From Alphaproteobacteria bacterium (GTDB lineage: Bacteria; Pseudomonadota; Alphaproteobacteria; Rickettsiales; JABSSG01): a DNA stretch of 28,237 bases. The stretch covers positions 1 through 28,237 of the forward strand of contig JAHZKS010000061.1 in NCBI GenBank assembly GCA_022600235.1. Direction: 5' to 3'. Shown in pieces: positions 25,554 through 28,105 of this stretch (the stretch's first letter is position 1; the number at the start of each line of letters is the position of its first letter). The translations under genes were made by a program, and so were the position numbers. Under the pieces are notes generated by a model. That model was given only the letters and a program-made list of their open reading frames with translations, searched no databases and was not told the origin of the DNA.

Positions 25554-25952
25554 ATGATAGTTAGCTTGTTAAAAAGCAAAGTAAGCACTGAGTTTTATAA
25601 ATTTATTATTGTTGGATCTTACTCAACGATAATAAATTATGGAATATTTTATATCTCTCTTGAGCTTCTGCTTATCAATTACATAATAGCATCTGCTATC
25701 GGTTTTATATCAGGAGTATTTGCAGGATACAGCTTTAACAGGAAATGGACCTTTAGTATAAGATCAGAAAGGAAAAAAATAGAAATTATTCAATACTATA
25801 GCGTGTATATATTCTCACTAATCTTAGGACTGTTATTATTAAAAATATTTGTTAGTGTTGTTAATATAGATCCTAAGGTAGCAAATATAATAGCTATAGG
25901 CATTACAACATGTACTAATTTTATCGGCATCAAAATGGTTGTATTCAGATGA
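25554..25952 (+). CDS. GtrA family polyprenyl-P-sugar translocase-like protein
   Basis: KFIIVG..ST.INY, A..IGF..G....Y..NRKWTF and four TM segments. Confidence 0.9.
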   Translation: MIVSLLKSKVSTEFYKFIIVGSYSTIINYGIFYISLELLLINYIIASAIGFISGVFAGYSFNRKWTFSIRSERKKIEIIQYYSVYIFSLILGLLLLKIFVSVVNIDPKVANIIAIGITTCTNFIGIKMVVFR

Positions 25953-28105
25953 AAGAAATACCTAAAGAAGTGTTAGTTGATAAATATGGAAATAACAAGA
26001 TAAGAGCTATACTGACTTCTAATCTTTTTTGGATTGGCTTTGCTATTAAAATGGTATTTGCCTTTACATTAGCATCTAACTTTCTAACAAACCTATTTAT
26101 TCCATTCACAAATTATTATGTTCAAAGCGGATTCTCAAACCCGTATAAGTATTTTGCAAATGCAGATCAAGTTGATTTCTTTCCATACCCTGCATTAATG
26201 CTCTATATAATGAGTATTCCAAGAATATTGTTTAGCTTGGTTGCGAATTGGGACAATATTTCTCCTGCAACTATTTTTCTGTCACGATTGCCCATTTTAT
26301 TGGCAGATTTTTTGATTCTGATTATTTTATTCCGGTTAATAAAGAAACATTCTCAAAAGATCCTTTTTTATTACTGGCTCTCTCCGATATTAATTTATAT
26401 CAATTATATACATGGGCAGCTCGATGCAATCCCAATATCTATATTGTTCATTTCTTTATACTTTCTTTTTAAAAGAAAGTTTGAATGTTCTTCTCTTTTT
26501 CTAGGCTTAGCAATTGCTGCGAAAACATCCATAGTTATTGTGTTACCTTTCTACTTTTCTTATTTGTTATATTCAAACACCATAACAAATAGACAGTTGT
26601 TATTGAATATAATAATTACAGTTAGCAGCTTTTTCATAATTAACATTCCATACATATTCAGTCCTGAATTTATTCAAATGGTTCTAAACAACAGAGAACA
26701 AATGAAAATATTTAATTTGAATTATAATTTTTCAGATGGGAATGTGTTATATTTTTTGCCACTAGCTTATTTGTTCTTGTTTTTTACAGCAATAAATCTC
26801 AAAGTACTTAGTAAAGATGTATACATGATGTTTTTGGGCTTTAGCTTTGGCATCATTGCTTTGATGATCTCTCCAATGCAAGGTTGGTATTATTGGATAT
26901 TACCTTTTTTTGCATATTTTCACTCTAAAAGATCCAATGCAAGATTTGATTTTGCTTCAATGCTTTTCTTATCATTATACTGTTCATACTTTATATATTT
27001 CATGTTAATAAAAACCTCTGATTATATACAAGTTTTACAAATTATACTTCCAGATTTTATTGAAACTCCTAATTTGTATCATTATCTGCAACAAAAAGGA
27101 CTGAACGCAGATAAGATATCTAACCTATCGTTTACCTTACTACAAGCATCTTTAATTGCTAACTGTATTTTCATATATAAACTAGGCATTAAGAGCTATA
27201 ACGCGTATAAAATCTTTTCAAATCCATTTCTATTAGGAATTTGTGGTGATTCTGGATCAGGGAAAACCACTATATCGAAGTCACTAGAATCAATTTTTCA
27301 AAGTAGCAATACAACAATAATTCAAGGTGATGCTATGCATAAATGGGAAAGAGGCAACGAGCACTGGAATAATATAACCCATTTAAACCCTAAATCTAAT
27401 TTATTATATGATGAAATCTCATATCTAAAAGCAATAAAAAACAGAGAAAATATTAGCAGAAGAAACTATGATCATGACACGGGTAAGTTCACTGAAGAGA
27501 AACAATTCAAACCTAGCAATCTAGTGATTTTTGAAGGTTTGCACAGTTTCTACATAAAACAGATGAGAGATTTATATGATCTAAAAATATTTATTAACAC
27601 ATCTGAAGATCTCAGAAAAAATTGGAAGATTAAAAGAGACACTAATAAGCGCGGATACTCTAAAGACAAAATTATAGCACAGATAAACAATAGAAAAGAA
27701 GATTCAGAAAAGTTTATCAAAGCACAGTTAAAATATGCTGATATTATTATAGAGCTTATTCCGTATAAAGGCTTAGAAAAAGAACATGATGTTTCAAAAC
27801 TACTTCTTAGAATAACTGCATCTAATTCGTTTTATTTAGAACCTCTATTCAACGAACTCACACATATAGACTCTGTTCAAATCAAACATGAATATGAAGA
27901 TAAAGATAGGCAGTTTATAGAAGTAAATGGAAATATATCTGCACAAAAAATTGATGCTATTGCTTATAATTTATCTTTGAGTATAGATCTTGAAGACTTA
28001 GGGATAGACCAGCCATCATGGAATGAAAATTATATTGGAATAATACAACTATTTATCACATATTGTGTGATGAAGAATTTAGGCTTAGAGAAAGAAAATA
28101 AATAG
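25949..28105 (+). CDS. Fusion: GT-C membrane glycosyltransferase (GT87/PIG-M-like) plus phosphoribulokinase-like P-loop kinase
   Basis: aa 1-424 are multi-TM with FPYP, SP..IY.....GQLD, LGLAIAAK and WYYWILP. From aa 425 it has GICGDSGSGKTT, D..H..ER, Y.H.TG, EGLH and WKI.RD...RG....I...I..RK.D...FI..Q..YAD. Confidence 0.88.
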   Translation: MKEIPKEVLVDKYGNNKIRAILTSNLFWIGFAIKMVFAFTLASNFLTNLFIPFTNYYVQSGFSNPYKYFANADQVDFFPYPALMLYIMSIPRILFSLVANWDNISPATIFLSRLPILLADFLILIILFRLIKKHSQKILFYYWLSPILIYINYIHGQLDAIPISILFISLYFLFKRKFECSSLFLGLAIAAKTSIVIVLPFYFSYLLYSNTITNRQLLLNIIITVSSFFIINIPYIFSPEFIQMVLNNREQMKIFNLNYNFSDGNVLYFLPLAYLFLFFTAINLKVLSKDVYMMFLGFSFGIIALMISPMQGWYYWILPFFAYFHSKRSNARFDFASMLFLSLYCSYFIYFMLIKTSDYIQVLQIILPDFIETPNLYHYLQQKGLNADKISNLSFTLLQASLIANCIFIYKLGIKSYNAYKIFSNPFLLGICGDSGSGKTTISKSLESIFQSSNTTIIQGDAMHKWERGNEHWNNITHLNPKSNLLYDEISYLKAIKNRENISRRNYDHDTGKFTEEKQFKPSNLVIFEGLHSFYIKQMRDLYDLKIFINTSEDLRKNWKIKRDTNKRGYSKDKIIAQINNRKEDSEKFIKAQLKYADIIIELIPYKGLEKEHDVSKLLLRITASNSFYLEPLFNELTHIDSVQIKHEYEDKDRQFIEVNGNISAQKIDAIAYNLSLSIDLEDLGIDQPSWNENYIGIIQLFITYCVMKNLGLEKENK

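Follow-up and report, generated by a model that had tools for sequence, protein, structure and literature searches.

Several systems for glycosylation outside the cytoplasm have been described in which a small membrane protein, a family 2 glycosyltransferase (GT2) and a membrane transferase of the GT-C type are encoded together, often on mobile DNA. These are GtrA/GtrB/GtrC of Shigella and Salmonella phages, ArnC/ArnEF/ArnT and CsbB/GtcA/YfhO, and their logic is alike: a nucleoside diphosphate (NDP) sugar is converted to a lipid-phosphate sugar, which is flipped, and the sugar is transferred outside the cytoplasm. Here, a gene cassette with a similar trio is described, which lies at the end of a stretch of 28,237 nucleotides from an Alphaproteobacteria bacterium of the order Rickettsiales (assembly GCA_022600235.1, contig JAHZKS010000061.1). 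This stretch, called the window in the following, is the whole contig. One gene of the cassette encodes a protein of 718 amino acids (aa), in which a GT-C membrane domain is fused to a domain related to phosphoribulokinase (PRK).

The Gtr systems use a housekeeping NDP-sugar (UDP-glucose), whereas the cassette appears to encode an activation module of its own with five or six enzymes, the first of which is the PRK fused to the GT-C domain. Furthermore, the GT2 of the cassette (244 aa) lacks the C-terminal transmembrane (TM) segments found in Gtr-type systems, and the GT-C domain belongs to the ALG6/ALG3/PIG-M/PimE class and not to the GtrC or ArnT type.

PRK is known from the Calvin cycle (plant and cyanobacterial enzymes, the archaeal PRK of Methanospirillum and the PDB entries 9qko, 9qkp and 9qkn). 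The fusion kinase, in contrast, lies behind about 12 TM helices, scores below the family cut-off and forms a separate clade. Its neighbors are glycan enzymes and not cbb genes, and no RuBisCO was found in the 80.6%-complete genome.

Two further pathways resemble parts of the cassette. In the haloarchaeal non-carboxylating pentose bisphosphate pathway, a ribulose 1,5-bisphosphate (RuBP) 5-phosphatase of the HAD type and a class II aldolase-family enzyme likewise act downstream of RuBP; this pathway obtains RuBP from ribose 1,5-bisphosphate isomerase, is catabolic and ends with dihydroxyacetone phosphate and glycolaldehyde (PMC9700705). In the cassette, on the contrary, RuBP would come from PRK and the products would feed nucleotidyltransferases (NTases) and glycosyltransferases; its HAD does not reach the equivalog cut-off, and the cassette of this organism has none. 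The routes to ADP- and GDP-heptose (GmhA, HldE/HddA, GmhB, HldC/HddC) also use a kinase to form a bisphosphate, a HAD to remove the distal phosphate and an NTase to yield the NDP-sugar. The heptose kinases have a ribokinase or GHMP fold in contrast to the PRK/Udk P-loop kinase of the cassette, whose substrate would be a pentulose, and the cassette adds an aldolase-family enzyme, an enzyme of the glycerophosphodiester phosphodiesterase (GDPD) fold and a second NTase.

We propose that the fusion is the centerpiece of a self-contained envelope-glycosylation cassette, in which ribulose 5-phosphate (Ru5P) would be turned into a surface pentulose, and we assign this reading a probability of roughly 0.55. 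Periplasmic glycosylation with a lipid carrier is of a known kind, while the PRK fusion and the RuBP-based activation module appear to be new: in a literature search, no description of either was found.

The fusion gene

The gene and its two domains are located as follows.

25949..28105, forward strand: fusion gene, GT-C domain followed by phosphoribulokinase domain, 718 aa (open reading frame without stops, family matches, predicted fold)
25949..27220, forward strand: N-terminal membrane domain, aa 1-424, about 12 TM helices, GT-C fold (predicted fold, hydropathy)
27221..28105, forward strand: C-terminal cytoplasmic PRK domain, aa 425-718 (P-loop kinase core and PRK-specific C-terminal subdomain)

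A first-pass annotation, made from the sequence of the window, had described an uninterrupted open reading frame at this position and had named a stop or frameshift near position 27220 as the sign of an assembly artifact. No stops are present. Logan contigs from three sponge-metagenome runs show neither substitutions nor indels in comparison to the window between 24800 and 28237, and the domain junction is spanned by a contig of a second sample (window 26688-27274), again with no stop or frameshift. The fusion is therefore not an artifact of the assembly, which is also ruled out by its recurrence in other species: the same architecture is present in 219 species representatives, and the catalytic residues of both halves are kept in 84 of 84 aligned copies. 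The genome itself, with 0.9 Mb assembled, stems from a sponge metagenome.

The protein was modeled by AlphaFold2 with an alignment of 109 sequences (predicted local distance difference test, pLDDT, 92.2; predicted template modeling score, pTM, 0.88). Comparison of this model against all PDB structures separates the two domains, in concordance with Foldseek. In the model the last TM helix comprises aa 387-419 and is followed by a linker of about seven residues and by the first kinase strand (aa 427-433). Due to this short linker, the kinase is predicted to be anchored on the cytoplasmic side of the membrane.

The closest long relative, with 71% identity, is encoded on a contig of a long-read metagenome-assembled genome (MAG; L034:9607-13039), where the fusion, GtrA and aldolase genes are each frameshifted. 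Since the neighboring genes of the same assembly are affected as well, the split of the fusion gene is read as sequencing error and not as a natural two-gene form or gene decay.

The kinase domain

The kinase domain matches the Pfam PRK/Udk family PF00485 (aa 429-606, E 3e-43). With the NCBIfam model of plant/cyanobacterial PRK (NF005655) it reaches 209-211 bits at a cut-off of 236, whereas the uridine kinase (Udk) models yield 96 bits (TIGR00235, cut-off 220) and 95 bits (NF004018, cut-off 180). The motifs on which the first-pass annotation had based a closer relationship to PRK than to Udk are all present, namely GDSGSGKTT (aa 433-441), GDAMHKWER (460-468), YDHDTG (507-512), EGLH (529-532) and WKIKRDTNKRG (559-569), and this relationship is also seen in the scores, in PRK-only residues and in the tree described below.

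For comparison, the domain was aligned with one annotated Udk and with three PRKs that are annotated as part of cbb or pentose-phosphate operons (Allomeiothermus, beside RuBisCO and CbbX; Mycobacterium; Sinorhizobium). G-D-x-x-H-x-x-x-R, Y-D-H and K-x-x-R-D-x-x-x-R-G are common to the fusion kinase and the three PRKs. Within these motifs, D461, H464, R468, H509, K560, R563, D564 and R568 align with the three PRKs and are invariant in the 84 copies, while Udk carries Y, K and F at the positions of H464, R468 and H509. The P-loop residues G433, S435, G438 and K439 are invariant as well in the 84 fusion proteins, which originate from different loci. In the PRK of Rhodobacter, the residues of D-x-x-H-x-x-x-R and K-x-x-R-D-x-x-x-R have reportedly been tied to Ru5P binding or catalysis by the mutagenesis of Miziorko. 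D461 and H509 align with the Asp-His catalytic pair of plant-type PRK, which is Asp57/His105 in Chlamydomonas (PMC9978339). Ala462 is unusual within the family and is found also in class I PRK. When compared with PDB structures, the model shows the PRK fold in full, also in its C-terminal part, where PRK has a subdomain that is absent from Udk.

In a maximum-likelihood tree of 73 kinase cores, the Udk clade including annotated Udk is cut off by a branch of length 1.12 (support 100/98), and the grouping with uridine kinases that the first-pass annotation had considered did not occur. Canonical PRKs, including a cyanobacterial paralogue group, form one clade (97/77), and a 98/93 branch parts all fusion kinases, together with those of the soluble viral modules described below, from PRK plus Udk. 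The bit scores are 116-143 against PRK and 54-75 against Udk. Hence, the kinase is a distinct branch of the PRK/Udk family outside both canonical clades; by distance, bit score, motifs and architecture it is closer to PRK, and it is not Udk.

Several databases label the domain "uridine kinase," and one could think of an ordinary uridine/cytidine kinase or a regulatory NTPase whose fusion is irrelevant to sugar activation. This is very improbable in view of the Udk score of 96 bits at a cut-off of 220, the 100/98 branch, the residues H464, R468 and H509, the complete PRK architecture with its C-terminal subdomain and the constant companions of the kinase, which are sugar-phosphate enzymes.

Judging by alignment and model, the C-terminal domain has the complete structure of a phosphoribulokinase, and none of the residues for catalysis and Ru5P binding is missing. 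Since all Ru5P-binding residues are kept, the kinase most likely still makes RuBP, and the new element is probably the destination of RuBP and not the chemistry of the kinase. The first-pass annotation had suggested a PRK fold repurposed to activate a pentulose for surface glycans. The part concerning the surface glycan gains support from the glycan and sugar-activation neighbors, while the kinase itself has probably not been re-specialized.

The large subunit of RuBisCO (PF00016) is absent from the matches in the 80.6%-complete genome, in line with the earlier statement that nothing points to carbon fixation, and no second PF00485 gene was found there. Likewise, the neighbors of the kinase are glycan genes and not RuBisCO or cbb genes.

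Two observations concern other PRK-family proteins. Large cyanobacterial genomes (L140-L149; G154-G190) encode, in addition to the Calvin-cycle PRK of 337 aa, a second PRK paralogue with a length of 312-327 aa. In the tree, this paralogue groups with the PRK from the cbb operon of Allomeiothermus and with a PRK of Mycobacterium. It appears to be the "cyanobacteria-specific PRK" of the PDB entries 9qko, 9qkp and 9qkn, on which no paper was found in a literature search. Moreover, PF00485 is weakly matched (56-64 bits) by open frames of 700-716 aa in several genomes of Cyanobacteriota (G168:C3:4310-4909 and seven similar places), which may represent a different fusion of a PRK/Udk-family kinase.

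The membrane domain

The N-terminal half had been described as a multi-TM GT-C transferase. Structural comparison of the model against PDB structures shows a predicted GT-C fold of the ALG6/ALG3/PIG-M/PimE structural class, the class that uses polyprenyl- or dolichyl-phosphate monosaccharides, and hydropathy indicates about 12 TM segments and a K/R-rich N-terminus. On sequence level, the Pfam family Alg6_Alg8 is matched marginally (25.8 bits at a cut-off of 25, aa 94-245 only), and the matches of homologues to GT87 and MptA_B are weak. The ESM features of the domain reach 0.97-0.98 to GT87 clusters, and a profile search of PDB sequences gave no match. D120 and D159 are invariant in the 84 copies and are candidate catalytic acidic residues. 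A transfer from a polyprenyl-phosphate sugar to an acceptor outside the cytoplasm would fit to the GtrA gene upstream and the ArnC/GtrB-like GT2 gene downstream.

The cassette

Around the fusion gene, the window harbors the following parts of the cassette.

24897..25547, forward strand: 216-aa cytoplasmic protein of predicted GDPD fold; no sequence-family match
25554..25952, forward strand: GtrA-family small membrane protein (Pfam GtrA_DPMS_TM, E 7e-25, aa 16-131)
28107..28237, forward strand: class II aldolase/epimerase-family gene, first 43 codons, cut by the contig end (43 of 43 residues match P0391)

The GtrA gene and the fusion gene share 4 nt, the stop of the former overlapping the start of the latter. 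A search with the proteins of relatives did not find the downstream genes in the window's own assembly, in which this part is not assembled. The aldolase fragment is 72% identical to the aldolase homologue of a related locus (L001) and is identical over 43 of 43 residues to a protein of 294 aa (P0391). Via this exact protein, the downstream half was recovered on an overlapping Logan contig (L151), of which nt 1-577 equal window 27661-28237 exactly. It continues the window with these genes.

L151:447-1331: aldolase homologue, 294 aa
L151:1535-2314: nucleotidyltransferase a, 259 aa, RmlA/HddC type
L151:2311-3105: nucleotidyltransferase b, 264 aa, RmlA/HddC type
L151:3072-3839: GT2, 244 aa as called (255 aa as open frame), PF00535, E 1e-21
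L151:3846-5516: PMT_2/ArnT-like membrane protein, 556 aa, at least 7 TM segments; no Pfam match, ESM features 0.99 to PMT_2/ArnT clusters

Thus, the Gtr-type trio of GtrA, GT2 and GT-C is encoded together in the window and L151. Beyond the PMT_2/ArnT-like gene, unrelated genes follow on the opposite strand.

To place this locus, 90 loci were annotated with hidden Markov models of the families, and all counts given here refer to the 48 loci flanked by at least 7 kb on either side. The companions were found as follows.

ArnC/GtrB-like GT2: 46 of 48 loci
Class II aldolase homologue: 45 of 48 loci
Nucleotidyltransferases: 45 of 48 loci
HAD: 40 of 48 loci
GDPD-fold protein: 40 of 48 loci
GtrA: 15 of 48 loci
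Second GT-C-like protein: 13 of 48 loci

GT2, aldolase homologue, NTases, HAD and GDPD-fold protein occur all together in 37 loci. In addition, the parts are tied to one another by gene fusions: the GT-C-PRK fusion is extended by the aldolase in a form of 1058 aa, two NTases are joined in proteins of about 549 aa, and an NTase is joined to the GT2 in proteins of about 500-530 aa. A surface-glycan context is also seen in the Azospirillum locus, which contains Wzm/Wzt, gmd and fcl.

These counts bear on the membrane domain as well. It might be a non-catalytic, PIG-U-like scaffold, which anchors the kinase or binds or flips a lipid intermediate, while the true transferase is a separate GT-C protein, here the 556-aa PMT_2/ArnT-like one. 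We consider this unlikely, because 35 of the 48 loci have no other GT-C nearby and the invariant polar residues of the domain suggest an active site.

The cassette HADs have the haloarchaeal RuBP 5-phosphatase family NF053830 as best family in 30 of 30 tested cases (best E 5e-60 vs. 6e-39 for the next family), and one individually scored HAD reaches 157 bits at an equivalog cut-off of 330. The archaeal enzyme is strict for RuBP, is inactive on ribose 1,5-bisphosphate in the published panel, yields cyclized ribulose 1-phosphate (Ru1P) and shares an operon with a FucA-like Ru1P aldolase (PMC9700705). The aldolase homologue of the cassette has the uncharacterized protein 3m4r and fuculose-phosphate aldolases as nearest solved relatives. 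Its homologues keep H117, H119, H176 and E103 invariant, which align with the positions known for zinc binding and catalysis in class II aldolases. The phosphate-binding G-G-N-x-S motif is kept too.

The 216-aa protein has no Pfam or NCBIfam match, and a profile search of PDB sequences was marginal. Its AlphaFold2 model (pLDDT 95.9) retrieves many GDPD/GlpQ/UgpQ structures in Foldseek (TMq 0.62-0.72) and is that of a glycerophosphodiester phosphodiesterase/PI-PLC-like TIM barrel. Consistent with this predicted fold, H6, R7, E24, D26, H38 and D39 (motifs H-R, E-x-D and H-D) are invariant or nearly so in 26 homologues, and RefSeq names the homologues of E. coli and Azospirillum as PI-PLC/GDPD family. 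In both NTases, the motifs G-x-G-x-R-F...K and W-G-T-P-x-D, which belong to enzymes of the RmlA/HddC type, are conserved. The best matches of the GT2 are ArnC, PgfS, dolichyl-P-hexose transferase and PpgS, and the GtrA protein is presumed to be a flippase or helper for a polyprenyl-phosphate sugar.

The genome contains a second Aldolase_II gene (G000:C28:7493-8209, 238 aa), which adjoins a TauE-family exporter and is unrelated to the cassette.

The proposed pathway

The presence of GtrA, GT2, two NTases, the aldolase homologue and, in most relatives, the RuBP-5-phosphatase-like HAD as neighbors strengthens the view that a pentulose is activated, and the following route is proposed. In the cytoplasm, the PRK domain would convert Ru5P to RuBP, from which the HAD would take off the 5-phosphate. 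This would leave Ru1P with a free O5, so that the furanose ring can close. The aldolase-family enzyme would then convert the ketose 1-phosphate, most simply by an AraD-like epimerization, and the GDPD-fold enzyme and the two NTases would yield a nucleotide sugar. The GT2 would put this sugar onto polyprenyl phosphate, GtrA would aid its passage across the membrane, and the GT-C domain would move the pentulose-type sugar to a surface glycan, to which the second, PMT_2-like GT-C might contribute in this organism. Here, the HAD was not found, and the second step would proceed via another phosphatase or differently.

The detour via RuBP may have a simple rationale. In Ru5P the O5 is esterified and therefore no furanose can form, while a phosphate placed on O1 would free it. 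As to the fusion, it would keep the committing kinase at the membrane beside the final transferase. The first-pass annotation had regarded kinase and transferase as physically coupled, which is the case insofar as they form one polypeptide. Since the kinase would catalyze the first and the GT-C domain the last step, we infer a tether or scaffold rather than direct substrate channeling.

A soluble version of the module was found on giant-virus MAG contigs (L099:491-6615 and L100:893-7012) and on four further viral contigs (L094, L096, L097 and L098). Its PRK-like kinase either carries an unassigned N-terminal region of 200 aa or is joined to the aldolase homologue. The other components are a HAD::aldolase fusion, the GDPD-fold protein and two NTases in one polypeptide. 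GT2, GtrA and GT-C are lacking, and the module is surrounded by Leloir-type glycosyltransferases and methyltransferases. This composition points to a nucleotide sugar as the likely product of the module and argues that the GDPD-fold protein belongs to sugar activation and not to lipid metabolism.

Instead of a pentulose, an aldopentose could be activated by the logic of the heptose pathways. Here, a PRK-like anomeric kinase would act on ribose 5-phosphate or arabinose 5-phosphate, the HAD would remove the 5-phosphate, and an NDP-pentofuranose would give polyprenyl-P-ribofuranose or -arabinofuranose for the GT-C domain, as a parallel to the mycobacterial decaprenyl-P-arabinose route that is independent of phosphoribosyl pyrophosphate. 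The order of kinase, HAD phosphatase and sugar-1-P nucleotidyltransferase indeed mirrors that of HldE/GmhB/HldC, both RmlA/HddC-type NTases need an anomeric phosphate, the ArnC/DPMS-like GT2 needs an anomerically activated NDP-sugar, and the kinase neither falls into the canonical PRK clade nor reaches the PRK cut-off. Nevertheless, the Ru5P-binding and catalytic residues are invariant in the 84 copies, and the best match of the HAD is a phosphatase specific for RuBP and inactive on ribose 1,5-bisphosphate (PMC9700705). Such a route would also leave the aldolase-family enzyme, which is present in 45 of 48 loci, is sometimes fused to the kinase and belongs to a family acting on ketose phosphates, without a role. 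Taken together, an aldopentose seems improbable as the product.

For the pentulose, leads to its identity, though not evidence, come from the occurrence of xylulose in other organisms. Xylulose is reported to be present in Yersinia enterocolitica O:5,27. Xylulofuranose has been reported in the N-glycans of the chloroviruses MT325 and TN603 (PMC9614988) and in E. coli O95/O97, for which no genes for NDP-xylulose are known (PMC7685785). Likewise, no xylulose donor pathway was found to be described in a literature search.

Several points weigh against the proposed pathway. All component activities, and with them the chemistry of the pathway, are deduced from sequences and models. The cassette of this organism contains no HAD, nor was one of that family found in its 80.6%-complete genome, and 5 of the 48 loci contain the NTases without the HAD. 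The score below the NCBIfam PRK cut-off (209 vs. 236 bits) and the separate clade outside the canonical PRKs make a changed substrate of the kinase conceivable. GT-C enzymes usually keep a catalytic Asp/Glu in the first extracytoplasmic loop; no invariant Asp/Glu is present in aa 48-80, and none could be assigned to the first periplasmic loop. Since only 2 of 5,426 complete E. coli genomes carry the cassette, it is unlikely to be the general source of xylulose in E. coli O95/O97, if such strains are among these genomes.

A further point is chemical. RmlA-type NTases and DPMS/ArnC-type GT2s need an anomeric phosphate, whereas the phosphate of Ru1P is on O1, next to the anomeric C2 and not on the anomeric O2, and at least one chemical step is thus left unexplained. 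One may speculate that an NDP-1-pentulose is converted to a 1,2-cyclic phosphate in a PI-PLC-like reaction and further to pentulose 2-phosphate, followed by a second nucleotidyl transfer. This would account for the phosphodiesterase as well as the second NTase. It is at odds, however, with three loci in which both NTases occur without the GDPD protein.

Combining these thoughts, the cassette could be the missing route by which ketofuranose donors, for example xylulofuranose or ribulofuranose, are made. RuBP would then be formed independently of any Calvin cycle, with the sole purpose of shifting the phosphate from O5 to O1 so that the pentulose can cyclize, and the GDPD/PI-PLC-fold enzyme and the two NTases would walk it via a cyclic phosphate to the anomeric O2. 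The NDP-pentulose would be used directly by the Leloir glycosyltransferases of giant viruses, and via polyprenyl phosphate by the PRK-fused GT-C of bacteria. We regard this extended proposal as tentative, and as possible rather than probable.

Distribution and mobility

A word-indexed search yielded more than 348 full-length homologues of the fusion. With the kinase domain as query against 1.84 billion cluster representatives, 685 clusters (50% identity) were found at E <= 1e-30. Among the best 150 of these 685, almost all are 660-720 aa long with a C-terminal kinase, and forms of about 830 aa and of 1058 aa occur as well. The first-pass annotation had asked whether the architecture is a common one of known function; it is common in sequence space, but no function was found to be described in the literature.

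The 219 species representatives encoding the fusion are GTDB species of many phyla. Carriers include Patescibacteria, Bacteroidota (Eudoraea adriatica, Zeaxanthinibacter enoshimensis), Melainabacteria, Bdellovibrionales, Alpha- and Gammaproteobacteria (Acetobacter lovaniensis, Martelella), Rickettsiales-like MAGs and an Olavius spirochete symbiont. Within the order of the window organism, only 3 of 151 genomes carry the fusion, and the 7 other genomes of its family all lack it. Such patchiness is typical of an accessory, transferred trait.

The fusion is also present on plasmids of Azospirillum brasilense, Hirschia baltica and E. coli. In both E. coli genomes mentioned above, the whole cassette lies between IS26 copies on IncR plasmids (L010:5648-14610, which is NZ_CP145712, and L012). 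The two plasmids are identical over the 3.8-kb stretch compared, although the strains originate from human stool in Switzerland and from frog-farm sediment in China.

If the proposed reading is true, PRK and RuBP, which are treated as signatures of CO2 fixation, would gain a second widespread job in cell-surface sugars. This role would span ultra-small Patescibacteria, Rickettsiales-like symbionts, Bacteroidota, Proteobacteria and giant viruses, and genome surveys using PRK as a marker of the Calvin cycle would need a caveat. Furthermore, the cassette would be a concrete candidate for the activation of a ketopentose (xylulose) in bacteria and chloroviruses. Being mobile, as seen by the IS26-flanked IncR plasmids, and patchy within orders, it could change surface antigens and hence the recognition by phages or the immune system.

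Other features of the window and its organism

Just upstream of the cassette, a divergent block on the reverse strand (20285-24717) encodes a GT1-like protein of 468 aa, a formyltransferase-like protein of 281 aa and two proteins of 315 and 312 aa without family matches. This block is probably a further locus for surface glycans.

A class I lysyl-tRNA synthetase is encoded at 6282-7943 on the reverse strand. The genome has a size of roughly 1 Mb and 31% GC, and the closest relatives of the fusion are labeled as a Rickettsiales MAG and an Olavius spirochete endosymbiont. The organism of the window is probably a symbiont with a reduced genome.

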